DNA from: a virus
Taxonomy: Duplodnaviria > Caudoviricetes
Virus record (IMG/VR): IMGVR_UViG_3300017747_003445
Span: 2,781-66,780 of that record
Direction: 5' to 3' (one strand)
DNA: 64,000 nt
The first letter of the stretch is position 1, and each line of letters begins with the position of its first letter. The translations under genes were made by a program, and so were the position numbers. Below the pieces are notes generated by a model. It did no database searches. It was not told the DNA's origin and saw only the letters and a program-made list of their open reading frames with translations. This document shows, piece after piece, positions 9,634 through 24,635 of the stretch.

Positions 9634-10524
9634 ATGAAATACCCCAAAGCGTATGTCTTATATGCCAATGAAAACTATATAGATATAGTTAATGCTTGTG
9701 CTAAATCAATTAAAACTTTCAGCAACCTTCCTGTTTTTGTCTATCTACTTAATTGTGATAAAACCGTTTTGGAAGCTGATAAAACCATTAATTGGGAGTG
9801 TGATATAGATGCAGATGAAAAAGAAGAAATGTACCTTAAGCAAAGTGATTTAAACTTCTATGTAAATAGGGCTAGTAAAAGAATTTATAGGCTAATAAAA
9901 GAACGACCACTTATTGTAAAGCATGCTCTAAAAATGGCTAATCTTGTGTGTTATGTGGATTGCGACTCCATAGCTACAAAGCATATAGATAGAGCCTTTA
10001 AATTATTTGATGAGCATAGCTTTTATCCATTTTTTTCTGAAGGTATTTATGATTTTTTAATGATGAATGGCAGGGGCGGGGCAACAGGGAATGACCTATC
10101 TACTACATTAGAACATCCAGCTTGTGAATTATTTAGTATTAATCAAAACAATCGTAAAAAATACAGGACATCAAATATATTTGTTGCAGGGCAAAATTGT
10201 ATTGAATTTTTAGACACTTGGTATTGGATGATGATACATCCTAAAATACTTGCAGACCCTGAATTATATGCCCCATTTCAGGATGAAACCATTGCAAACT
10301 GCTTGTTATTTAAACATAATTTTCAAGATGGACTTCCTTATGTTTATACTAATGGTGGATTAGATAGGATAGATGAAGTGCTTAATATTGGATTCAATGG
10401 TTCAGTACAATACATAGCTCAATGGTTTAAGATTCCTGCAAAAGAAGAAGATTTACTACTGTTCCATGGAGAAAAAAGAACTGCTGAAATGAATAAAATG
10501 ATTGAAAAATTAAAAACTATATGA
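9634..10524 (+). CDS. GT-A fold glycosyltransferase-like protein
   Basis: DxD motif 'YVDCDSI', 'QDET' and C-terminal 'FHGEK' as in GT8-like enzymes. Confidence 0.65.
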   Translation: MKYPKAYVLYANENYIDIVNACAKSIKTFSNLPVFVYLLNCDKTVLEADKTINWECDIDADEKEEMYLKQSDLNFYVNRASKRIYRLIKERPLIVKHALKMANLVCYVDCDSIATKHIDRAFKLFDEHSFYPFFSEGIYDFLMMNGRGGATGNDLSTTLEHPACELFSINQNNRKKYRTSNIFVAGQNCIEFLDTWYWMMIHPKILADPELYAPFQDETIANCLLFKHNFQDGLPYVYTNGGLDRIDEVLNIGFNGSVQYIAQWFKIPAKEEDLLLFHGEKRTAEMNKMIEKLKTI

Positions 10525-12566
10525 AGAAAATAAAACTACTTTACTTAATGCCTCATTGCAGTACAGGAGGTATGCCCCAATTTGTTCTTAAGCGTATTCA
10601 AACACTATTAGATTATACAGATGCATTTGAGATATTTGTTATTGAATATCATGATTATGGTAAATCATTTCCTGTTCAACGAAATCAACTTATAGAACTT
10701 TTAGGCAATAATTTTATTAGCTTACAAGAAAATAAAATGCGTGTAATGGAAATTATTCGCACCGAAGAAATAGATATAATTCATTTAGATGAGATGCCAG
10801 AATTAATGGATAATGATAGATTATTTAAAGATTTATATCGTAATGATAGAAAATGGTATATCGTTGAAACTTGTCATAATTCCTCATTCCGCCCTGATAC
10901 AGATAAAAGATTTCATCCTGATTTATATTCTTTTTGTACTCCTTGGCATGAAGATATATTTGGTAATATGGATGCTCAATTTGTTACAATACCATATCCT
11001 ATTGATAAGAAAGACAATCATGCAGTTAAAGAAGGTAAGCATGTTCTTAATGTAGGATTATGGACTTCTGGTAAAAATCAAGGTGAGGGGATTGAAATTG
11101 CACGCAAATACCCTAATATGACATTTCATTTTGTAGGTAATCAAGCTAGTAATTTTTCTGATTATTGGTTACAACTGATGAAGGATTTGCCACCCAATGT
11201 AATTGTATGGGGGGAAAGAAAAGATATAGATACTTTTATGGAGATGGCTGACATATTTATGTTCAATTCTACCTTGGAGTTGAATCCATTGGTACTTCGT
11301 GAAGCTATTGGGTATGGACTTCCAATAATCGCGCGGAATCTTCCGCAATACGCGGGAATGTATGATGATTATATTAATCCTATTGATACTGATTTAAATA
11401 CTTTAGAATGTACTTACAAAGTGCCTACTGACAATACCTCATTGACCTTTGGATTAAGACATGAAGAAGCCTATAAAAAGATATTAGAAAAGCCAATCCA
11501 TCAACAAAAAGTAAAAGTTATTAACTATTATGTGGATAACCCATTTTTAGAAATTAAGGGTGTTTCTGATAGTGATTTTAAGGTGGCATTTTATGATGAA
11601 AAAGATATATGCCATTATGAAAATACCATTAAATCAAATAATTGGGTTAAAGTTAACAGGCAATACTACACAAAATGGACTGCAAAGGTTTGGCAAGATG
11701 GAGAACTAATTTACGAGGACACACTAGACTTAAATAACAAAAGAGTTTACATAGCATTTGAAAGTAAATCATTAGGAGATACCATTGCATGGATGCCGTA
11801 TGTAGAAGAATTTAGAAAGAAACATAATTGTACGGTGATTTGCAGTACATTTTGGAATAGCTTGTTTGACTATCCAGAGATTGAATTTGTGGAACCATCG
11901 TTTGTAGTACCAAATATTTATGCCCTTTATCGTATTGGTTATTTTGATAATTTAGATAAGCTACCATTAAAGCCTGTAACAATACCTCTTCAAAAGGTCG
12001 CTACAGCCATTTTAGGACTTGATTTTAAAGAAATGATACCAATACTAGCTTATAAGCCTAAAGTGGCTAAAATGGGCAAATATGTAACAATAGCGACCAA
12101 TTCCACTTCAGGAATGAAGTTTTGGACTAAAGAGGGGTGGCAAAAGCTTATTAATTGGTTAGTTTCTGATGGGTATGAGGTGTATAATGTTTCCCTTGAA
12201 CCAAATCCATTTGATAATTGCACACAAATAACCACTCCTTCCCTTGAATCTAAAATGGATTGGATTGCAGGAAGTGAATTTTTTATAGGATTATCTTCAG
12301 GTTTAGCTTGGGTTGCTTACGCTATGGGTAAGAGAGTGGTAATGATAGCTAATTTCAGTGAAGAGTTCAATGAGTTCTCTTGCATAAGGATTGTAAAAAA
12401 AGATGTTTGTCATGGTTGCTGGAACAATCCTAATTTTAAATTTGATGCTGGAAATTGGAACTATTGCCCGATTTATCAAGGTAGTGATAGACAATTTGAA
12501 TGTCAAAATTCAATAACAAGTGATATGGTTATAGAAAAAATAAAACTAATGAATGGAAAATTTTAA
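10521..12566 (+). CDS. Fusion: GT4-like glycosyltransferase plus TibC/AAH-type (autotransporter strand-loop-strand) O-heptosyltransferase-like domain
   Basis: N-half 'ADIFMFNSTLELNPLVLREAIGYGLPII' (GT4); C-half 'SLGDTIAWMPYVEEFRKKH', 'FFIGLSSGLAWVAYA' and 4-Cys iron finger 'CHGCW…NYCP…RQFECQNSIT'. Confidence 0.85.
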   Translation: MKKIKLLYLMPHCSTGGMPQFVLKRIQTLLDYTDAFEIFVIEYHDYGKSFPVQRNQLIELLGNNFISLQENKMRVMEIIRTEEIDIIHLDEMPELMDNDRLFKDLYRNDRKWYIVETCHNSSFRPDTDKRFHPDLYSFCTPWHEDIFGNMDAQFVTIPYPIDKKDNHAVKEGKHVLNVGLWTSGKNQGEGIEIARKYPNMTFHFVGNQASNFSDYWLQLMKDLPPNVIVWGERKDIDTFMEMADIFMFNSTLELNPLVLREAIGYGLPIIARNLPQYAGMYDDYINPIDTDLNTLECTYKVPTDNTSLTFGLRHEEAYKKILEKPIHQQKVKVINYYVDNPFLEIKGVSDSDFKVAFYDEKDICHYENTIKSNNWVKVNRQYYTKWTAKVWQDGELIYEDTLDLNNKRVYIAFESKSLGDTIAWMPYVEEFRKKHNCTVICSTFWNSLFDYPEIEFVEPSFVVPNIYALYRIGYFDNLDKLPLKPVTIPLQKVATAILGLDFKEMIPILAYKPKVAKMGKYVTIATNSTSGMKFWTKEGWQKLINWLVSDGYEVYNVSLEPNPFDNCTQITTPSLESKMDWIAGSEFFIGLSSGLAWVAYAMGKRVVMIANFSEEFNEFSCIRIVKKDVCHGCWNNPNFKFDAGNWNYCPIYQGSDRQFECQNSITSDMVIEKIKLMNGKF

Positions 12567-13218
12567 TTGGGGTGACTCACCTGAAGAGTTCAACAAGCTG
12601 ATACACAAAGAGATATTTGAAGATAAGATGTACGAAAAGGTTTTTAAGGTGAAAGAGGGGGATGTCGTTTTTGACATTGGCGCAAGTACAGGGGCTTTTG
12701 CTTATTCTATCTTGGGTGCAAATCCAAGTCATGTTTTTTGCTTTGAGCCTAGTTACAAGGAGTTTATGACATTGGTATTAAATACTAGACAAGCGCCTGT
12801 TACCTGTGTAAACAAAGCCATATCTGGTATAGTAGGGGAGTTTAAATCAGACTATATATTTGATAATGACCAAGATAAGATATATTCTACCACTTTTATG
12901 CAAGTGATAAAAGACTATAATATAAATAAAATAGATTTTTTAAAAATGGATTGCGAGGGTGGTGAGTATGATATTTGCAATGCTAAAAACCTATTATGGA
13001 TAAAAGAAAATGTAAGCCAAATAAGTGGTGAATGGCATTTAAGCACTCCTGAATTAAAAAATAATTTCAGAATATTTAGGGAGAACTATCTAACGGCATC
13101 TAACTATAAAATATATTCACTAGACAATTTTGATATAACAATGGGTGTTTGGTCAGATGAATTTATAGACTATTATACAGAAGTTATCGTACACATAGAA
13201 AATAAAAAAGCAGGTTAA
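12553..13218 (+). CDS. FkbM-family methyltransferase
   Basis: 'VVFDIGASTG', 'CFEP', 'IDFLKMDCEGGEY'. Confidence 0.9.
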   Translation: MENFNWGDSPEEFNKLIHKEIFEDKMYEKVFKVKEGDVVFDIGASTGAFAYSILGANPSHVFCFEPSYKEFMTLVLNTRQAPVTCVNKAISGIVGEFKSDYIFDNDQDKIYSTTFMQVIKDYNINKIDFLKMDCEGGEYDICNAKNLLWIKENVSQISGEWHLSTPELKNNFRIFRENYLTASNYKIYSLDNFDITMGVWSDEFIDYYTEVIVHIENKKAG

Positions 13219-13436
13219 GGTTGTTTCTTCTCTTTTAGACCATAAGTAATCCATCTGTACCAAATACGCTCATGGATGTAGTATTGGATTGGTTTGTAAA
13301 CTAATTCAGCTACTCCAAATGCAGCTCCTACTTTTATAGAACCACTAATACCCCACATGATTCCAAATCCTACGGCTGTACTAATAATTCTATAGCTTAT
13401 AGTCTTGGCTAAATGCCTTTTCTTTTCTACTATCAT
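13215..13436 (-). CDS. DUF2061-like small membrane protein
   Basis: 'RHLAKTISYRIIST…YYIHERIW'. Confidence 0.8.
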   Translation of the reverse strand: MIVEKKRHLAKTISYRIISTAVGFGIMWGISGSIKVGAAFGVAELVYKPIQYYIHERIWYRWITYGLKEKKQP

Positions 13437-13810
13437 AAACCTAATTCTTTTCTAATTTTAGTTGCTGATATTTCTGCCACTTCTGATGGTGGTATATATT
13501 CTATAATGTCATATCCAACTCCTCTACCAAAGTTGACTGAAGAAATATCAGGAACAATAATAACTTGAACGCTTTCATTATCCCAATACTCTTTTGATAT
13601 GTTTTCAAATACCTGCCTTGTAGTAAATGGATTTTTTTCATTAACATCACCATCTCTAACAGCAATACATACCCTTCCTCCGTCATCTAATACTTGCTGA
13701 AATAATTGTTTATGAGCCTCGTGTAAAGGTTGCCAACGACCTATAAACAAAGACCATTGACTATCTTTTCTCTCCATTGAGCTTTTAACATGTACTTTTT
13801 TATTCCACAT
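13433..13810 (-). CDS. HxxH-class nucleotidyltransferase (cytidylyltransferase-like)
   Basis: 'FIGRWQPLHEAH' and 'ISATKIR'. Confidence 0.85.
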   Translation of the reverse strand: MWNKKVHVKSSMERKDSQWSLFIGRWQPLHEAHKQLFQQVLDDGGRVCIAVRDGDVNEKNPFTTRQVFENISKEYWDNESVQVIIVPDISSVNFGRGVGYDIIEYIPPSEVAEISATKIRKELGL

Positions 13811-14237
13811 ATTTCATTATTTTATCTGCTGCTTCTTCAATTGATTGATTATCGGTATTTATTTGCATGAAATTTTCCAATTCTGGTTCTTCAAAATCAG
13901 CAACATGAAAACCTTCTCTACCTCTTGGTTTTGTATAAGTTAAATATATCCATTTAACATCATCACTTAATGAATTAAGATAATCTCTAGCTTCTTTATA
14001 AGGATAGACAACAGATACAATTACATCTTTATTATTCCAGTCTAGATATGCAGCTATATCACTAGCCTTTTGCAAGTTCTTTAACCTACCTTGTCTACTA
14101 AAATCTTTATTCTGAAAAATTTCCCTAAGCTCATCTCCATCAATAAGTTCAGTTGTATATGAATCAAAGTACCCCCTTAACTCATTAGCTAAAGTTGTCT
14201 TACCACTATGTGGCTGTCCAAATAATACTATTATCAT
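13800..14237 (-). CDS. cysC: Adenylyl-sulfate (APS) kinase-like protein
   Basis: P-loop 'GQPHSGKTT', 'IDGDELR', 'FSRQGRLKN', 'FEEP'. Confidence 0.85.
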   Translation of the reverse strand: MIIVLFGQPHSGKTTLANELRGYFDSYTTELIDGDELREIFQNKDFSRQGRLKNLQKASDIAAYLDWNNKDVIVSVVYPYKEARDYLNSLSDDVKWIYLTYTKPRGREGFHVADFEEPELENFMQINTDNQSIEEAADKIMKYVE

Positions 14238-15052
14238 TTTGTATATCTAAATTGTTGAAAAAACCATTGATAATTATCCCAAATCCACCCTGTCACCTCT
14301 TTGCCCAACAGTTGTTTAGCTCTTGATGGAACAGGCTCTAGCTTTGTACGGATGGTATGGTCACCAAAGCTTCCATATACTTCATCATCTTCTTTAGTTA
14401 CTTGCTCTATGTTGTCCCAATCATGTTGGTAATATGGTATGCCTAAATACTCGTATATTTTTACCATTGTGCTATCAGGATATAAACATAAATCCTCAAA
14501 CTTTACAAATAAAACATGCTTGTCTATGTCTAATCTAAACATCTCTTGCAGCCTTTCAATAGCTAATCCTACGGGCTGTGATTGCGACCAAATATCTATA
14601 CGCTTTGGTACTGTCGTTCCCTGCATTTGCGCCCAATTTAAAATAGCATTTGCTTTGTCTGGATTCTTTCTATAGTTGTTTTCCATTGATGCAAACACAT
14701 CTCTTAAATCTCTAACCATCACAATAATTTTTGGGTTAGGTTGTATGAAATTTAAAAAGTCATAGTGTATGCCCCATCCTCTTGATTTGTCTACAATATA
14801 CTTTTTATTTGTAATGGCATTATAATAAGCTTCCATACCAAATCTACAAAAGGCTTGGAAAGCCGTTTTCATTATCGCAGAATCTTGTGCTTGAAATTCA
14901 GGAGAGTCTGTGTAATTACCTCTTGCAGCAAATACTAATTCTAAAACGCCACTTGTAGGCGTTGCATAGATATCTGAATTTTGAGCTAGTATGTTTTGTA
15001 AAAGTGTACTACCACTTCGGGGAAGAGAACTTTGGTAAAATATTTTTTCCAT
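14234..15052 (-). CDS. PAPS-dependent sulfotransferase
   Basis: 5'-PSB 'SLPRSGSTLL' and 3'-PB 'VRDLRDVFAS'. Confidence 0.9.
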   Translation of the reverse strand: MEKIFYQSSLPRSGSTLLQNILAQNSDIYATPTSGVLELVFAARGNYTDSPEFQAQDSAIMKTAFQAFCRFGMEAYYNAITNKKYIVDKSRGWGIHYDFLNFIQPNPKIIVMVRDLRDVFASMENNYRKNPDKANAILNWAQMQGTTVPKRIDIWSQSQPVGLAIERLQEMFRLDIDKHVLFVKFEDLCLYPDSTMVKIYEYLGIPYYQHDWDNIEQVTKEDDEVYGSFGDHTIRTKLEPVPSRAKQLLGKEVTGWIWDNYQWFFQQFRYTK

Positions 15053-15053
15053 A

Positions 15054-15932
15054 TTATTTTTTCAGTGATTCAATAATTTTATTTACATCAAATATCTCCT
15101 CTTCGTTATTATACGGAAACTCCAAAAGATTACCTGAAATATCATACTTCTGCAAGAATGAATGTCTTAACTCTGGCTTTTTTGTTTCATTGTTAGCTAA
15201 AATATTATCATGTATTTCATGTCCAAATACAACAGGTGTATTAACTACCCAACATACTGTGCTTGGCTTATTCATTGCAGCAGCAGCATGGTGAGCAAAG
15301 CTATCCATAAACAATCTTTTCTCACTTAAATCTATAAGAACTGCTAATGCTCTAAAATTATCTGTTACTGAAAATGTTCCATCAAATGATGGTTGGTCAT
15401 CTCTTCTAATATGAATGATGTTGTAATCATTTCTAAATTCTTCAATTACTCTTGCTACAACACTTGTAGGTATATCTCTTGCCCATGAGTATTTTAATTC
15501 TTGTTGAGCTGCGCCACCATTGGTTTGCAATAAAAATATTGGCTTGTCTGAAACAAACTTCTTACTAAAAAAGCTTCGCTCTCTATCGGTAAGAAACAAT
15601 TCTGGACTAGTTGATTCGGGTAAATCTAAACCAAGCATCTTACACCATGTATGTGTTAAATGTTCTGTTTGTAATAAATGCCCTGCTTCTAGGTACGGGT
15701 CGTGTCCAAAGAATTTAAAATCTTTTCCATCAATATAATCTTGGTAAAAATATTGAGTTTGACCAAATGTAAAAGCCCTATCAACGTGTGGATTATCAAG
15801 AAATACTTCAGGATAACCGCTTAACACGATTAATTGGGCTTCAGGATATTGTTTTTTAATTTGTTTGCAAATAACGGTGGACATGATACATTTACCAATT
15901 CCGCCATTAACTTGTAAGATAGCTATCTTCAT
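15054..15932 (-). CDS. GT9-like (heptosyltransferase-fold) glycosyltransferase; start revised to MKIAILQ at 15932
   Basis: 'GGIGKCIMST', 'YPEAQL', 'FMDSFAHHAAAAMNKP'; a -7 box overlaps the track's upstream TTG. Confidence 0.8.
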   Translation of the reverse strand: MKIAILQVNGGIGKCIMSTVICKQIKKQYPEAQLIVLSGYPEVFLDNPHVDRAFTFGQTQYFYQDYIDGKDFKFFGHDPYLEAGHLLQTEHLTHTWCKMLGLDLPESTSPELFLTDRERSFFSKKFVSDKPIFLLQTNGGAAQQELKYSWARDIPTSVVARVIEEFRNDYNIIHIRRDDQPSFDGTFSVTDNFRALAVLIDLSEKRLFMDSFAHHAAAAMNKPSTVCWVVNTPVVFGHEIHDNILANNETKKPELRHSFLQKYDISGNLLEFPYNNEEEIFDVNKIIESLKK

Positions 15933-15950
15933 GAATATTTGGGTTTTGCC

Positions 15951-15958
15951 CAAAGTTA
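15951..15958 (-). promoter_or_regulatory. -7 box (TAACTTTG) for the GT9/sulfation operon
   Basis: CAAAGTTA on the + strand. Confidence 0.6.
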
Positions 15959-15998
15959 TGAAGTAACTATTAAATTAAAAAATTAATTTAATTAAATA

Positions 15999-17993: not shown

Positions 17994-20900
17994 TTATTTC
18001 AATTTAGCTTCTAGTTTAGCAATTCTTTCTTCTAGTTTAGATAGTTTATAAGTATTTACGTGGTTGTAATCAACTTGCTTATATCCCTCTACATTATTGT
18101 GTACTGCATTTGGAAGTACTTTTTCTACTTCTTGTGCTATGTAACCAAAACAAGATTTATTATCCGTATCTTTTTTCCAAGAGAATTGACTAAAATTAAT
18201 ACCATCATAAGCACTAAATGTGTTATGAATATTTTTAAGTCTGCAATCTGATGTTTCAAAAAATGCTGTGGCAAACATACAAGAACAAGCACAAGAGTTA
18301 TTTGTATAAAAAGTACAAGCTGCTGAAGCAGTGATGCTACAACCAAAAGCTCCCGACCAAGCCCCACTAGCGGTATTACTTGAACCTCCTAAAACAGCAG
18401 AACAACCACCTGATGCTGCATTTGAAACACCTCCTACAACTACACTACGATATCCTGAAGCTGTATTACTATCACCACCGCCTACAAAACTTCTACCACT
18501 ACTTGCGGTGTTACTTGCTCCTCCTGCAACTGTTGTAAAATATGTTCCACTAGCTGTGTTTGATGCACCCCCACCTACTGTATTGTAAGCAATACCTGAA
18601 GCTGTGTTACCAACACCGCCTGACACTGTTGAGCTTAAGGTTGAAGCTGTATTACCTGTACCACCTGACACTGTAGAAGTAGCTCCTGAAGATATGTTAC
18701 TAACACCACCCCCTACAACAGAACAAACACCTGATGCTGTATTTGTAACACCTCCTCCTACTGTTGAATAACTATTTGTTACTGTATTAGTACATCCACC
18801 TGCTATTGCTCCCCAAGCACCTGAAACAACATTTGCTCTACCACCACCAATAAATCCGTGACAACCTGCTGATATTACATTTTGATAACCACCTGATATT
18901 GTTGATGCATAGACACCACATATTCTACTGTTATAACCTGCACCAATAAATGAATAATATCCTGAAGCTGTATTGTCTGCTCCTCCTACTACTGCTGCTT
19001 TATAAGGTCCACAAGCTCTATTACCTGTACCTCCAACAACAACAGCAGCCCAAGAAGTAGCATTATTACTATATCCACCACCTACAAAAGTACCGCAATT
19101 TGTTGATGTATTGCCAAATCCGCCTGAAACCACTGATGCACAACCTGAAGCTGTATTAGCATATCCACCTCCTGCTTTTGAAAATACACCTGAAGCTGTG
19201 TTTGATTGTCCACCACCTATTGATGTGTGGCTAGCTGATGCTACACTACCATATCCACCTACAATTGATGCACAAGAACCTGATACATTATTATTTTGAC
19301 CACCACCAATAAATGCACGATATCCTGAATTGGTATTAGTTCTTCCTCCTACAACTACATTTTCTGTTCCTGTAACTCTATTTGCATATCCTCCTGATAT
19401 TGTTGAAGCATAACCACATACTATATTATTATATCCACCACCAATAGTATCATAAGTACCTGATGCTGTATGTGCTCTACCACCTGCTACTGTTGTAGCT
19501 TGACCATTTGATGTGTTACTAATACCACCACCTATTACGGCATAAATAGCTGATGAATTATTTCCGCTACCTCCTGCATTTACTGAAAAACTACCTGATG
19601 CAGCATTACCTCCTCCGCCTCCCGCAAAAGAACAAGCACCTGATGCAGCATTAGCTGCACCACCACTTACTGTACTATGAGTTCCTGAAGCTGTATTTAC
19701 TCTTCCACCTGCTATAACACTTCTGTTACCACTTGCTGTATTAGCTTCTCCACCTCCTATAAAAGAAGAATAGTTTGATACAGTATTATAATATCCACTC
19801 CCAATACCTGACCAAATATAACCAACATTATTACAAATACCTCCTGATACTACAGCATATCCTGCTGAAGCTGTATTTGTTTTACCTCCACCTATAAATG
19901 AACAAGCTCCTGAAGCTGTGTTAAGTGTACCACCTCCTATTGTAGATAAATAACCACTACTTATGTTATTATACCCTCCTGCTATAGTTGAATTTACTCC
20001 TGATGATGTATTTGTTTGCCCTCCTCCAATTGTACTACCAAAACCACTATTATTCACATTTTGATATCCTCCTCCTATTGTACCATAAGGTGCACTATTT
20101 GTATTTTGATATCCACCTATTACTGAAGTATATTGTGCTGTTGCCCTATTCTGAAATCCTCCTCCTATTGTTGAAAACTGACCTGCTGCAAAAAATGTTG
20201 TAGGAGCTACTGAAAAAAATCCATTTGTAGTATTAAATGTACCACCTGATGTGTTGTTTCCAATACCACCTGATATTGTTGTACCTGATGTACATCCTGC
20301 TGCGACAGAACTACAAATATAGTTACAAGTACCTGCACCAATAAATGATGCTGTTGAATTTAAACAGTTTTTATAACCTGCTGATATTGTATTATAATTA
20401 CCACTACTATTATTATACCATCCACCACTAATTGTGTTAGCATAACCACTTGCTGTGTTTGTTTGACCACCACCAATAAATGAACGAGAACCTGATGCTG
20501 TGTTTGATATACCTCCTGAAACTGTAGAAAATTGATTTGAAGCTGTATTAGAACATCCTCCTATAATAGCTGAAGTTGAACCTGATGATATATTATTATT
20601 ACCACCACCTACAAAAGAGTATCCCCCTGAAGATGTATTACCTTTACCACCTGCTATTGTACCTGATGTAGCAGGAGCATTGTTACTCCTACCTCCTGCT
20701 ATTGTAACATAATATCCTGAAGCTGTATTTGATGTTCCACCTCCAATTGTACCACCATATTGACTATTTAATACATTACTTGCACCACCACCAATAGTAC
20801 TTGCAGCATTGGCTCCAATAACACAAACAACGTTAGCTTGACCACCACCTATAGTAGCGAATGCTCCTAATGCTCTATTAGAAATACCACCACCAATAGC

Positions 20901-23900
20901 TGAGCAATTGCCTGAAGCTGTATTACATGCACCACCATTTACTGCACTATGGTTCCCTGAAGCAGTGTGTGCACCTCCTCCTGCTATAACTGAATTTAAT
21001 CCTGAAGCAATATTTGAATCTCCACTTAGTACGGATGAATAATAGCTTCCTGAAGCAGTATTGTTATACCCTCCCCCTACAACGTGAAGACCTTGACCAC
21101 ACGCTCTATTAGTACTACCCCCTCCTATAAAAGAACGACTAGCTGTAATTGAGTTAAGATATCCACCACTTATTGTTGACCAAGCTGTACTTGCTGTATT
21201 ACCACATCCACCAACTACAGCAGAGCAAGCAGCTGATGCAGTGTTACCGTGTCCTCCTGCAACCACTGCTCTATAGCCTGATGCTGTATTGCTATCTCCG
21301 CCACTAACAACACTTCTACCAGCACTCGCAGTATTTGATGCCCCACCTGAAACAGTTGCAAAATATGTTCCACTAGCTGTGTTTGATGCACCACCACTTA
21401 CTGTTGCATAAGCAATACCTGAAGCAGTGTTTTGCTGACCACCACCTACCGTAGAACGATAAGTTGAAGCTGTATTAGTAAAACCACCACTTACTGTAGA
21501 ATGAACTCCCAAAGCTTTATTACAAATACCACCTCCCACAAATGCATGCGCTGCTGTAGAACAGTTTGCAAGTCCCCCTCCAACAAAAGCATAATTTGCA
21601 GAGGCTAAATTTCCATTACCACTTGCTATACCTGAAATATATCCTGATGCTGTATTGTTTACGCCAAATACTACTGAAAAACCACCACTTGCTGTGTTTG
21701 TTCTACCACCTGCTGTTGAGTAGTTTCCTGATGCTGCATTACTACCACCGCCTACTACTGTAGAATTACAACCTGAAGCTGTGTTTAAATTACCACCACT
21801 AACAGTTGCATAAGTTGAATTTGCTGTATTTCCATCTCCTCCAACAACAACAGAAATATATCCTGATGCTGTATTGGCTGAACCGCCACCGTGAAACGCT
21901 CTTGCGCCTGATGCTCTATTGTTTGACCCTCCTACAGAAGTAGCTAAACAAGCTGTTGCACAAACTAATGTGCCTCCACCTACAAACGCATAGTCACCAC
22001 AGCTAATATTCATCCAACCACCTGCAAGAACACCTGCTGTTCCCATAGAATAAAGAGTAGTTGGAGCAGTTGAAAAATATGCAGCACCCATAACACCACC
22101 TGCTGTATTGTTTCCAATACCACCCCCCATAAATGAACCTATACCTGTTGCTCTATTACATATACCTCCTGCAACAGTTGATTGCACTCCTGATGCACAG
22201 TTTCTATATCCTCCTGATACAGTACTACTGTATCCACTTGCTAAATTTACATATCCTCCTCCCACTGCAGAATAAGAATTTGAAGCTGTATTTGCATAAC
22301 CACCACCTATTGATGTGTGATTAGACGATGCTACATTACCATATCCGCCTAAAGCAGCAGAATAATTACCTGATGCACTATTTACAACACCACATCTAAC
22401 AGATGATAATGTACCTGCTCCTAATATAATAACAGCACTAGAACCAACATTTATACCACTAGAACCTGAAGTACCTGCCGTTCCGCTTGTTCCACTAGAA
22501 CCACTTGTCCCACTAGTTCCTGAAGAACCGCTAGTTCCTGTAGTTCCACTTGTCCCAGTCGTTCCTGAAGAGCCAGATGTTCCTGAAGTACCAGATGAAC
22601 CAGAAGTTCCAGAAGTTCCAGATGAGCCACTACTACCACTTGTACCCGTTGTTCCACTAGTACCTGATGAACCTGAAGTCCCTGATGTACCCGTAGAGCC
22701 ACTAGTACCAGTTGTACCGCTTGTTCCAGAAGAACCTGATGTTCCTGTTGTGCCACTAGTTCCAGAAGAACCTGAAGTTCCTGTTGTGCCACTAGTACCA
22801 TTTGTACCATTTATACCGCTAGTTCCTGATGTTCCTGAAGTTCCGCTTGTGCCAGAAGTACCACTTGTTCCCGAAGTTCCTGAAGTTGTACCTACAGCTA
22901 TACCAATTTGTTTTATGTTGGTAATAATTGAAGGTGCTGCTGGTATTGTGCCTGTTGCAGCTACTGCTGTTACCTGAACATCAGATGCATTTGCTTGAAA
23001 ATAAACTTCATAATAATCATTAGCATTTGCACTATCAATAATAGAAACGAATGGTAACTGCTTTGCACTTTGGCTTCTTAAACCTAAGATAGAATCAGTT
23101 CTAATAATATTAGCTCCATTTTTCCTTAACCAAATATTAACATCTGCACCACCACCACCTGTATGTTCTATCTGTAATGAATATGCAATTTCATATATTC
23201 CAGTATGTTGAACAGTAAGTTGTGAACCACTGAAAACAATACCATTACTATATTCATCATTTGTATATGTAATTGCTGTTGGTGTATTTGCCGCAGTTAC
23301 CACTTGAGTAGCTGTACTTGTAAACGCACCATACCAGTTAGCAATAGAAGCTCCTGAAGTACCATCTATACCATTGCGTCCCGAAGTACCTGATGAACCA
23401 CTAGAGCCGCTTGTACCAGATGTTCCAGATGTTCCTGTAGTTCCGCTTGTACCAGATGTTCCACTTGTGCCGCTAGAGCCGCTTGTGCCTGTAGTGCCTG
23501 ATGTTCCCGAAGAGCCATCACCACCACTAGCACCATCCAAGTTTACTACCCATGCAGAATAAGTTCCACTACCCACTGTTCTAGTTGGGGCTGCAAATTG
23601 CAAAGCACCCGTTACACTATTATATGAAATAACCTCACACTCTTGGAAGTTTGAAATATTATAAACTACTATTATTGATTGAGCCACTGTATAAGCAAGT
23701 CCTGTTCCAACAGTTATTGTTGCCGCATTGCCTAATGTAAATGTTGAAGTAGATGTGGTAGCATATTTATCACCTGTGTACCCTGATGTTCCTGCGGTTC
23801 CTGAAGAACCACTTGTACCAGATGTCCCACTCGTTCCATCTGTTCCTGAAGAGCCACTAGTTCCTGTAGAACCAGAAGTACCTGTCGTTCCTGATGTTCC

Positions 23901-24635
23901 GCTTGAACCTGAAGTTCCCGTAGTACCACTTGACCCCGTAGTTCCGCTTGTACCACCTGTTCCGCTTGTACCTGCCGAACCACTCGTTCCTGATGTTCCA
24001 CTAGTTCCGCTTGTGCCATCGCTCCCTGAAGTACCGCTAGTACCTGTAGTACCTGAAGTCCCCGTTGTACCTGAAGTCCCAGTAGTTCCTGAAGTTCCAG
24101 TAGTCCCTGATGAGCCAGAAGAACCGCTTGTTCCTGATGTACCTGTAGTACCTGAAGAACCGCTTGTTCCTGAAGTTCCAGAAGAGCCACTTGTTCCTGA
24201 AGTTCCAGAGCTTCCACTTGAACCACTCGTTCCACTTGTGCCAGTTGTTCCACTTGTTCCGCTTGTTCCATCAGTTCCGCTAGTACCTGAAGTACCACTT
24301 GTTCCATCTGTACCTGAAGTTCCCGAAGTTCCACTAGTTCCGCTCGTACCCGTAGTTCCACTTGTTCCTGTAGTACCAGAAGTTCCTGAAGTACTTGAGC
24401 TACCAGAACTACCGCTTGTTCCTGCTGAACCGCTTGTACCAGAAGTGCCTGTTGTGCCTGAAGTACCTGTTGTTCCACTTGTACCCGTAGTACCACTCGT
24501 ACCACTTGTACCCGAAGAACCTGAAGTTCCTATAGTTCCTGAAGTATCGGCTGCTACTATGCCATTAACGGCAACCAAAATTCCATTTTCATTTCTTATT
24601 TTTATATCCCCCGTAATGAGTGATTGAATAGCCAT
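17994..24635 (-). CDS. Long tail fibre: Gly-Thr-Ser collagen-like blocks, globular inserts, ~14-aa beta-helix repeats and C-terminal S74 intramolecular chaperone
   Basis: (GTS/GSS/GTT)n; xVxGGxxNTASG repeats; 'ETSDCRLKNI…GYIAQEVEKVLP…VDY' followed by a terminal coiled coil. Confidence 0.9.
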   Translation of the reverse strand: MAIQSLITGDIKIRNENGILVAVNGIVAADTSGTIGTSGSSGTSGTSGTTGTSGTTGTSGTTGTSGTSGSAGTSGSSGSSSTSGTSGTTGTSGTTGTSGTSGTSGTSGTDGTSGTSGTSGTDGTSGTSGTTGTSGTSGSSGSSGTSGTSGSSGTSGTSGSSGTTGTSGTSGSSGSSGTTGTSGTTGTSGTTGTSGTTGTSGTSGSDGTSGTSGTSGTSGSAGTSGTGGTSGTTGSSGTTGTSGSSGTSGTTGTSGSTGTSGSSGTDGTSGTSGTSGSSGTAGTSGYTGDKYATTSTSTFTLGNAATITVGTGLAYTVAQSIIVVYNISNFQECEVISYNSVTGALQFAAPTRTVGSGTYSAWVVNLDGASGGDGSSGTSGTTGTSGSSGTSGTSGTSGTTGTSGTSGTSGSSGSSGTSGRNGIDGTSGASIANWYGAFTSTATQVVTAANTPTAITYTNDEYSNGIVFSGSQLTVQHTGIYEIAYSLQIEHTGGGGADVNIWLRKNGANIIRTDSILGLRSQSAKQLPFVSIIDSANANDYYEVYFQANASDVQVTAVAATGTIPAAPSIITNIKQIGIAVGTTSGTSGTSGTSGTSGTSGTSGTSGINGTNGTSGTTGTSGSSGTSGTTGTSGSSGTSGTTGTSGSTGTSGTSGSSGTSGTTGTSGSSGSSGTSGTSGSSGTSGTSGSSGTTGTSGTTGTSGSSGTSGTSGSSGTSGTAGTSGSSGINVGSSAVIILGAGTLSSVRCGVVNSASGNYSAALGGYGNVASSNHTSIGGGYANTASNSYSAVGGGYVNLASGYSSTVSGGYRNCASGVQSTVAGGICNRATGIGSFMGGGIGNNTAGGVMGAAYFSTAPTTLYSMGTAGVLAGGWMNISCGDYAFVGGGTLVCATACLATSVGGSNNRASGARAFHGGGSANTASGYISVVVGGDGNTANSTYATVSGGNLNTASGCNSTVVGGGSNAASGNYSTAGGRTNTASGGFSVVFGVNNTASGYISGIASGNGNLASANYAFVGGGLANCSTAAHAFVGGGICNKALGVHSTVSGGFTNTASTYRSTVGGGQQNTASGIAYATVSGGASNTASGTYFATVSGGASNTASAGRSVVSGGDSNTASGYRAVVAGGHGNTASAACSAVVGGCGNTASTAWSTISGGYLNSITASRSFIGGGSTNRACGQGLHVVGGGYNNTASGSYYSSVLSGDSNIASGLNSVIAGGGAHTASGNHSAVNGGACNTASGNCSAIGGGISNRALGAFATIGGGQANVVCVIGANAASTIGGGASNVLNSQYGGTIGGGTSNTASGYYVTIAGGRSNNAPATSGTIAGGKGNTSSGGYSFVGGGNNNISSGSTSAIIGGCSNTASNQFSTVSGGISNTASGSRSFIGGGQTNTASGYANTISGGWYNNSSGNYNTISAGYKNCLNSTASFIGAGTCNYICSSVAAGCTSGTTISGGIGNNTSGGTFNTTNGFFSVAPTTFFAAGQFSTIGGGFQNRATAQYTSVIGGYQNTNSAPYGTIGGGYQNVNNSGFGSTIGGGQTNTSSGVNSTIAGGYNNISSGYLSTIGGGTLNTASGACSFIGGGKTNTASAGYAVVSGGICNNVGYIWSGIGSGYYNTVSNYSSFIGGGEANTASGNRSVIAGGRVNTASGTHSTVSGGAANAASGACSFAGGGGGNAASGSFSVNAGGSGNNSSAIYAVIGGGISNTSNGQATTVAGGRAHTASGTYDTIGGGYNNIVCGYASTISGGYANRVTGTENVVVGGRTNTNSGYRAFIGGGQNNNVSGSCASIVGGYGSVASASHTSIGGGQSNTASGVFSKAGGGYANTASGCASVVSGGFGNTSTNCGTFVGGGYSNNATSWAAVVVGGTGNRACGPYKAAVVGGADNTASGYYSFIGAGYNSRICGVYASTISGGYQNVISAGCHGFIGGGRANVVSGAWGAIAGGCTNTVTNSYSTVGGGVTNTASGVCSVVGGGVSNISSGATSTVSGGTGNTASTLSSTVSGGVGNTASGIAYNTVGGGASNTASGTYFTTVAGGASNTASSGRSFVGGGDSNTASGYRSVVVGGVSNAASGGCSAVLGGSSNTASGAWSGAFGCSITASAACTFYTNNSCACSCMFATAFFETSDCRLKNIHNTFSAYDGINFSQFSWKKDTDNKSCFGYIAQEVEKVLPNAVHNNVEGYKQVDYNHVNTYKLSKLEERIAKLEAKLK
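18330..22400 (-). repeat. Degenerate ~14-aa repeat array (e.g. STVSGGISNTASG)
   Basis: Dozens of GG-xx-NTASG units in the fibre translation. Confidence 0.9.
22455..24545 (-). repeat. Three Gly-X-Y (X,Y = Thr/Ser) triplet blocks
   Basis: About 23780-24545, 23350-23525 and 22455-22890; Gly every third residue with variable synonymous codons. Confidence 0.9.

Follow-up and report, generated by a model that had tools for sequence, protein, structure and literature searches.

Introduction

All sulfate assimilation, and all sulfation that depends on 3'-phosphoadenosine 5'-phosphosulfate (PAPS), begins with ATP sulfurylase, and to our knowledge only two types of the enzyme are known, Sat and CysDN. 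In the PAPS synthases and Sat-CysC pairs (PAPSS1/2, 1x6v; Aquifex aeolicus, 2gks) an HxxH adenylyltransferase is coupled or fused to adenosine 5'-phosphosulfate (APS) kinase, whereas CysDN combines the PAPS-reductase-like CysD with the GTPase CysN. Another arrangement is that of the rhizobial nodH-nodP-nodQ genes, in which a sulfate-activation set homologous to CysDN/CysC is bundled with a sulfotransferase for one glycan product. Here we describe a sulfation cassette in the DNA of a virus of the Caudoviricetes (IMG/VR record IMGVR_UViG_3300017747_003445, positions 2,781 to 66,780). The window, meaning the whole stretch of 64,000 nucleotides that was analysed, covers most of the 66.8-kb record, which has inverted terminal repeats. 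The cassette consists of five minus-strand open reading frames (ORFs) at 13215-15932, arranged head to tail, that encode a GT9-fold (GT-B) glycosyltransferase of 292 aa (15054..15932), a PAPS-dependent sulfotransferase of 272 aa (14234..15052), a short-lid subtype of APS kinase (CysC) of 145 aa (13800..14237), an HxGH nucleotidyltransferase (NT) of 125 aa that is a candidate non-orthologous ATP sulfurylase (13433..13810), and a small predicted membrane protein of 73 aa with a DUF2061 domain (13215..13436). Going from the glycosyltransferase to DUF2061, the first two genes are separated by 1 nt and the three following junctions overlap by 4, 11 and 4 nt, which confirms an earlier statement that the five genes overlap or abut. 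Four of the five proteins have Pfam matches, the exception being the GT9-like protein. We assign a probability of about 0.7 to the reading that this cassette makes PAPS itself and uses it, and that NT is a very small kind of ATP sulfurylase.

How does this locus compare with the described systems? The coupling of an HxxH adenylyltransferase to APS kinase is that of the PAPS synthases, and in fused relatives of NT the kinase is N-terminal as in animal PAPSS. Unlike the Sat-type PAPS synthases, NT has 125 rather than ~390 residues, contains no PUA-like domain, QXRN loop or PF01747 domain, and descends from the branch of the nicotinamide mononucleotide (NMN) adenylyltransferases (NMNATs). With the archaeal/NadM NMNATs (1f9a, 1ej2, 2qjt, 2qjo) it shares the motifs GRxQPxHxGH, NPFT and ISxTxxR and structural Z-scores of up to 9.7, but it lacks the stretch that follows the PDI strand and the C-terminal helices closing the NMN site, it has an added invariant GRGVGY loop, and in genomes it is accompanied by APS kinase, sulfotransferases and CysQ instead of NAD genes. 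The place of NT in the operon beside CysC and DUF2061 is similar to that of CysDN, such that the Bacteroidota order DUF2061-CysC-CysD resembles the phage order APS kinase-NT-DUF2061, although the folds are unrelated and the phage cassette has no GTPase partner. The rhizobial Nod-factor genes provide a further comparison, to which the weak NoeE similarity of the phage sulfotransferase belongs, with the difference that NT stands in the place of nodPQ and does so in a phage context. A literature search found no paper describing this enzyme or a function for DUF2061.

The nucleotidyltransferase is associated with APS kinase in viruses and cells

The NT family contains 5,881 proteins of about the length of the phage protein plus 691 that are longer, the majority of the latter being fusions of an APS kinase domain (PF01583) with PF01467. 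In some fusions, P0138 and P0173 among them, the CysC part is canonical and complete, with its KGLYKKA and FTGI motifs. The fusion profile matches, through its kinase half, the APS kinase of human PAPSS1 at 6e-45, and phrog_10255 is itself an APS kinase-NT fusion. Gene order was compared in 80 IMG/VR loci, taken from at least 428 confirmed, and in 80 cellular loci from GTDB species genomes, taken from 165 confirmed. APS kinase adjoins NT in 72 of the 80 viral loci; in the cellular loci it adjoins NT in 62 and is fused to it in seven, or 69 of 80 together. All five cassette families occur together in 17 of the 80 viral loci, and they are also found together in loci L004, L005, L010 and L016; this recurrence indicates that the arrangement of the cassette is not due to chance. 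The cellular loci belong to Marinimicrobia, Flavobacteriales, marine group III and Poseidoniales archaea, and Saccharibacteria, and they are polysaccharide clusters in which flippases, UDP-glucose dehydrogenase, GT1 enzymes and Wza-like exporters are encoded. Sulfotransferases are present among them (Sulfotransfer_5 in 13 loci and Sulfotransfer_1/3 in eight), as are CysQ-like phosphatases of the Inositol_P family (nine loci), which remove 3'-phosphoadenosine 5'-phosphate, the by-product of sulfotransferases.

A fundamental question is where the APS kinases of these genomes obtain APS. Among 50 NT-bearing genomes, Sat is present in four and CysD in one, a total of five. The control was a set of 151 randomly drawn Bacteroidota genomes, of which 61 are APS-kinase-positive; CysD is found in 45 of these 61 and Sat in four of five of the others tested, so that at least 49 of 61 have one or the other. 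The difference between 5/50 and at least 49/61 corresponds to a Fisher exact p of 2.8e-14. In all five NT genomes checked, a closed 0.97-Mb chromosome among them, no APS kinase occurs other than that adjoining NT. The NT profile has no match in five Bacteroidota genomes that are APS-kinase-positive and CysD-negative, and Sat is present in four of them. The rationale for reading NT as an ATP sulfurylase is that an APS kinase without a source of APS makes no sense and that NT is the one conserved candidate for that source. The proposal of the preliminary description, that the 125-aa protein is a minimal APS-forming enzyme with which the PAPS pathway of the phage is complete, is therefore supported in silico by the longer homologues, by the gene order in 72/80 and 69/80 loci, and by the rarity of Sat and CysD among carriers. 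An NT-type enzyme appears to replace Sat and CysDN in many bacteria and archaea.

An alternative hypothesis is that NT acts in sulfonucleotide metabolism and does not form APS, being instead a regulatory or non-catalytic partner of the kinase, an enzyme that converts APS to and from another nucleotide, or the source of another sulfate donor. Fusion and adjacency reveal a functional link between NT and APS kinase and not the reaction, and three tested Nitrospiraceae genomes keep Sat in addition to NT, both of which agree with this hypothesis. However, the HxxH and ISxTxxR motifs are invariant across the family, which argues against a non-catalytic protein; 45 of the 50 carriers show no other APS route for their APS kinase; and the sulfotransferase has standard PAPS loops. 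We consider this alternative unlikely.

Some family members are built or placed differently. P0121 and P0122 are fusions with other parts, namely an N-terminal half that contains NUMOD3 and an N-terminal half with no recorded Pfam family, respectively, and P0137 is an NT homologue with a C-terminal PF01883 (Fe-S assembly-like) domain. A metagenome-assembled genome (MAG) of Pelagibacteraceae has an APS kinase-NT pair on a contig of 18.9 kb that was binned with that family (L029 9577-10342), and no Sat or CysD is found in the 0.8-Mb assembly. The Sanovirus group is exemplified by Stenotrophomonas phage Bhz60, whose APS kinase-NT fusion is at L001 5482-6324.

Sequence and fold of the nucleotidyltransferase

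NT matches PF01467 (CTP_transf_like) at 5.5e-05, and its AlphaFold2 model, with a predicted local distance difference test (pLDDT) score of 89.8, is a confident Rossmann-like HxGH fold. The sequences GRWQPLHEAH, which keeps the HXXH motif as HEAH, and ISATKIR correspond to the GRxQPxHxGH and ISxTxxR of archaeal/NadM NMNATs, and the residues invariant in the family are G24, R25, Q27, H30, H33, R52, G95, R96, T117 and R120. When the model is compared with solved structures by VIA-align, NMNAT 1f9a (Z 9.7) and phosphopantetheine adenylyltransferase (PPAT; Z 9.6) are the nearest, with NMNAT, NadM and PPAT entries spanning Z 9.7-8.4. The Thermus ATP sulfurylase 1v47 reaches Z 7.7 over 110 aligned residues at 24% identity, and other Sats reach Z 5.6-5.9, such that the modelled likeness of NT to Sat is at the generic level of the superfamily only. 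A profile search of PDB matched Sat entries via their APS-kinase-like domain only. The record itself has no match to PF01747, the Sat catalytic domain, in a search that detected its controls, and none to PF01507 (PAPS_reduct), the domain of CysD (TIGR02039).

In Sat, the QXRN (RNP) loop directly before HXXH binds sulfate and the alpha-phosphate, and the GRD loop contacts ribose and sulfate (PMC3779200). The NT family has an invariant G95-R96-G97 (GRGVGY) loop after strand 3, a possible structural equivalent of the GRD loop. With 125 aa in place of the ~165-180 aa of an NMNAT domain, NT is ~45 residues shorter; HMMER alignments to 1ej2 and 2qjt stop at residues 77-93, such that the 40-50 C-terminal residues of NMNAT are missing, and the Gly-Ser that follows strand 2 in NMNATs is an invariant Arg-Asp/Glu in the NT family. 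Two invariant arginines, R52 and R96, are predicted to lie on the acceptor side and would suit a small anion. NT is thus a cut-down relative of archaeal/NadM NMN adenylyltransferases and not of Sat. The kinship with Sat suggested in the preliminary description holds in so far as the two share a superfamily; descent is from the NMNAT/NadM branch.

Could NT then be an adenylyltransferase of NMN, nicotinic acid mononucleotide or another NAD-related substrate that boosts NAD during infection and lies beside sulfation genes by accident? Archaeal NMNAT and NadM are its best matches in sequence and in fold, with GRxQPxHxGH, NPFT and ISxTxxR in common, and the kinase-NT fusion of Sanovirus adjoins a gene with a NADAR domain. 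However, the scores of NT against the NMNAT/NadM models are far below the cut-offs (31.2 bits against 127 for NF002243 and 24.2 against 181.2 for TIGR01527), the alignment ends near residue 93 with the loss and the Arg-Asp/Glu replacement described above, and an NAD function leaves unexplained both the adjacency or fusion to APS kinase in ~90% of loci and the lack of Sat and CysD in carriers; we regard such a function as very improbable. Another proposal, that NT activates a sugar phosphate for the GT9-fold transferase, as in the preliminary description, or for the TibC-like transferase, much as HldC/RfaE domain II of the same superfamily converts heptose-1-phosphate to ADP-heptose, is very improbable, since, although two heptosyltransferase-like enzymes are encoded nearby and HldC is among the fold matches of NT, HldC (5x9q, Z 5.9) lies well below NMNAT, PPAT and Sat, the GT9-like gene accompanies NT in only 21/80 viral and 3/80 cellular loci as opposed to 72 and 69 for APS kinase, and the record contains neither a GmhA-type isomerase (PF13580) nor a PfkB kinase.

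Several observations weigh against the assignment of NT as an ATP sulfurylase. By sequence and by fold NT is closest to NMNAT, NadM and PPAT, with Sat lower (Z 7.7 versus 9.7), and the sulfate-binding QXRN loop of Sat is absent from the NT family, which has G-R-[WYF]-Q-P-x-H-x-[GA]-H. The count of five in 50 comes mostly from incomplete MAGs and single-amplified genomes of 0.7-3.8 Mb, in which the absence of Sat or CysD from any single genome is unproven, and the control set was not matched to the NT carriers for completeness. Five loci of Nitrospirales/Nitrospiraceae (L056, L057, L068, L076 and L090) have a longer NT, which is extended at its C-terminus and reaches 165-178 aa, and APS kinase is absent from their vicinity; Sat, as a ~585-aa open frame, is present in all three of the Nitrospiraceae genomes tested (L056, L057 and L068). 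The Sanovirus fusion lies beside NADAR-domain and MazG-like genes, and within 6 kb of it there is no sulfotransferase. Lastly, the phage kinase is without the canonical lid segment (the KGLYKKA region), and although it matches the NCBIfam adenylyl-sulfate kinase models at 3e-15, its scores of 56.6 and 51.6 bits are below the equivalog cut-offs of 127 and 138.7.

A proposed route from sulfate to a sulfated product

We hypothesize that the cassette acts in three steps. In the first, NT would move AMP from ATP to sulfate, yielding APS and pyrophosphate. The enzyme may have arisen from an NMN-adenylyltransferase-like ancestor through loss of the nicotinamide-binding C-terminal part and gain of the invariant R52 and R96 at the acceptor site. 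In the second, the translationally coupled short-lid APS kinase, whose family membership is clear, would phosphorylate the 3'-OH of APS to give PAPS, and this step would pull the unfavourable first reaction forward. In the third, the sulfotransferase would use PAPS, the likely acceptor being a sugar placed by the GT9-fold transferase. DUF2061 would be a small membrane protein that assists sulfate activation, for which sulfate entry is the best guess.

If NT is an ATP sulfurylase, and so a third type of only 110-160 residues, metabolic reconstructions would change for abundant aquatic microbes that at present are rated as incapable of sulfate activation. Orphan cysC genes and the sulfotransferases in sulfated-polysaccharide clusters would then have an explanation, and enzymatic sulfation in biotechnology would gain a very small part for regenerating PAPS. 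The locus also suggests that phages carry a full route from sulfate to a sulfated product, which would add sulfation to the known decorations of virions and host surfaces. A broader model joins three proposals: that NT forms a third class of ATP sulfurylase, of independent evolutionary origin, and provides the sole APS route in many members of the Marinimicrobia, Flavobacteriales, marine group III archaea and Saccharibacteria; that DUF2061 is a membrane component for sulfate entry or handover; and that the phage employs both of these to build a sulfated, methylated heptose glycan, started by the neighbouring TibC-type enzyme, on its own tail fibre. That all three hold at once is quite unlikely.

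APS kinase, sulfotransferase and glycosyltransferase

The kinase matches PF01583 at 5.4e-12 (46.4 bits; cut-off 21.1), a match confined to positions 4-101 of the 152 in the profile, and its top eight matches in PDB are all APS kinases, e.g. 2yvu at 7.5e-11. Its translation contains a Walker A motif (GQPHSGKT), DGD and the FS..R..N segment typical of APS kinases. The short-lid form is the usual partner of NT in phages and Marinimicrobia; in Flavobacteriales and in some of the fusions, NT is paired with a full-lid CysC.

The sulfotransferase has Pfam matches to Sulfotransfer_3 (PF13469; 1.8e-20, 74.6 bits against a cut-off of 27) and Sulfotransfer_1 (PF00685; 8.8e-15, 55.2 bits against 22), and it also matches phrog_27463 at 6.9e-41. 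The nearest NCBIfam model is NoeE-like (2.2e-08), and the closest solved relatives are, weakly, protein-tyrosine sulfotransferases (E ~6e-4). Its PRSGST segment, for the 5'-phosphosulfate, and RDLRD segment (RDxRD), for the 3'-phosphate, align with the corresponding loops of TPST1. A sulfotransferase is present in 18 of the 21 viral loci that have the GT9-like gene.

The GT9-like gene was given a TTG start at 15953 by the ORF lister; the ATG at 15932 yields the N-terminus common to homologues and is most likely the start. The protein has no Pfam match, PF01075 included, its NCBIfam match to heptosyltransferase III/RfaQ has an E-value of only ~0.005, and a profile of 18 homologues has no match among PDB sequences, so the protein is placed by fold search only. 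Its AlphaFold2 model (pLDDT 89.9, predicted template modelling score 0.89) retrieves in Foldseek the GT9 structure 3tov at 3.9e-12 (TMq 0.60-0.68) and WaaF (1psw) at 1.4e-11, followed by WaaC and TibC. The earlier label GT9 can therefore be kept at the level of the fold, which is GT-B with GT9 structures nearest, but not at the level of the sequence family.

DUF2061 and sulfate activation

The smallest cassette protein matches PF09834 at 1.4e-15 (57.9 bits against a cut-off of 23.1) over profile positions 1-51 of 52. DUF2061 follows NT in 46 of the 80 viral loci, seven loci have the NT-DUF2061 pair alone, and DUF2061 is absent from truly cellular NT loci, which indicates that NT does not need it. 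The link of DUF2061 to sulfate activation is real and is drawn from other contexts. In six of ten Bacteroidota chromosomal loci, DUF2061 is at the head of a sulfate-assimilation operon or fused to CysC, with the orders Rrf2-DUF2061-CysH-CysD-CysN-sulfite reductase and DUF2061-CysC-CysD, and on one Bacteroidota chromosome a single ORF encodes a DUF2061::CysC fusion that is followed by CysD (L106 1477-2331, plus strand). DUF2061 is also encoded in a Mesorhizobium nod locus, together with nodH, nodP and nodQ (bioRxiv 10.1101/2022.04.26.489235). An earlier suggestion that DUF2061 supplies sulfate is thus borne out as far as a connection to sulfate activation is concerned, by the cys operons and the one CysC fusion, and a role in sulfate entry itself is a guess.

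The longer DUF2061 proteins retrieved with the phage protein (129-214 aa) contain PF09834 only, with no fusion to a sulfation enzyme. In jumbo phages, a long form of 135-153 aa occurs among HAD_SAK_2 and dTDP-sugar isomerase genes (L012 6924-7767 and L015 7619-8408). A 131-aa ORF that precedes and overlaps DUF2061 in the jumbo-phage loci L012-L015 was considered as an NT and rejected, as it has no detectable similarity to NT.

Transcription, neighbouring genes and possible target

The cassette is preceded by an AT-rich gap of 66 nt (15933..15998, minus strand), a possible promoter region. A promoter of its own had been attributed to the cassette, and this is not upheld: the gap has no sigma-70-like site on the cassette strand, the total of such sites in the scan is not above that of shuffled sequences, and the Bacteroidota-type -7 motif TAnnTTTG occurs 115 times in the window versus 104.6 expected and is not enriched. 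The gap contains a single instance of this motif, TAACTTTG, at 15951-15958. Directly upstream on the same strand is the gene for a fibre protein of 2213 aa (17994-24635), and a 537-aa beta-propeller-like protein is also encoded upstream of the cassette. Since the cassette directly follows tail-fibre genes on the same strand after only 66 nt, it may be read through from them, perhaps as part of a late transcription unit. In two metatranscriptome runs from lakes, contigs that match perfectly span portions of the NT, sulfotransferase and GT9-like genes; DNA carry-over is possible in these runs, and the contigs hint weakly at transcription of the cassette while saying nothing on strand or co-transcription, and uncovered stretches carry no information.

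Two plus-strand genes converge on the cassette. The nearer one encodes an FkbM-family methyltransferase (12553..13218; TIGR01444 at 3.8e-15, PF05050 at 4.8e-10), overlaps the DUF2061 stop by 4 nt and also adjoins the APS kinase-NT-DUF2061 run in L061. The second encodes a GT1 domain (Glycos_transf_1, 3.9e-10) fused to a TibC/Aah-type protein O-heptosyltransferase (10521..12566; TIGR04414, 239.9 bits against a cut-off of 200 over residues 349-675), and a neighbour of the same kind also comes after the cassette in L005 and L061. The TibC/Aah-type enzyme possibly starts a glycan, and the methyltransferase possibly belongs to the same decoration pathway. The 2213-aa fibre has long runs of Gly-Thr/Ser-Ser triplets and many NTASG-type repeats and is a candidate acceptor for glycosylation and sulfation. 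Because the cassette follows the fibre genes and faces the TibC-type and methyltransferase genes, a glycan on the phage fibre is a candidate target. Our guess is that a sulfated glycan on the tail fibre is plausible, with a host surface polysaccharide equally possible as the target.

Why would a phage carry every step? The Flavobacteriaceae assembly G032 provides one example, in that its chromosomal pathway is without CysC and its only APS kinase is on a 62.6-kb contig (C9) that has this sulfation cassette and a terminase 30% identical to that of the phage described here. Such hosts would have no PAPS of their own, which could explain why a phage brings the complete route. Homologues of the terminase at 28-30% identity occur in five places in G032, on contigs C7 (twice), C9, C10 and C21.

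The large terminase of the phage shares ~29% identity with the large terminases of Flavobacterium, Cellulophaga and Tenacibaculum podophages. The host is probably a lake Bacteroidota. A blastn search of the cassette region against a phage collection gave no match, and more than 20 runs of lake-water metagenomes, dated 2019 to 2024, contain DNA near-identical to the phage. In one lake DNA run, the contigs over 13060-14250, the DUF2061-NT-kinase part, are short and of lower depth, with the flanks on long contigs, which suggests population variants of that part of the cassette. An alternative form in the same run has 221 other letters in place of 13960-14188.

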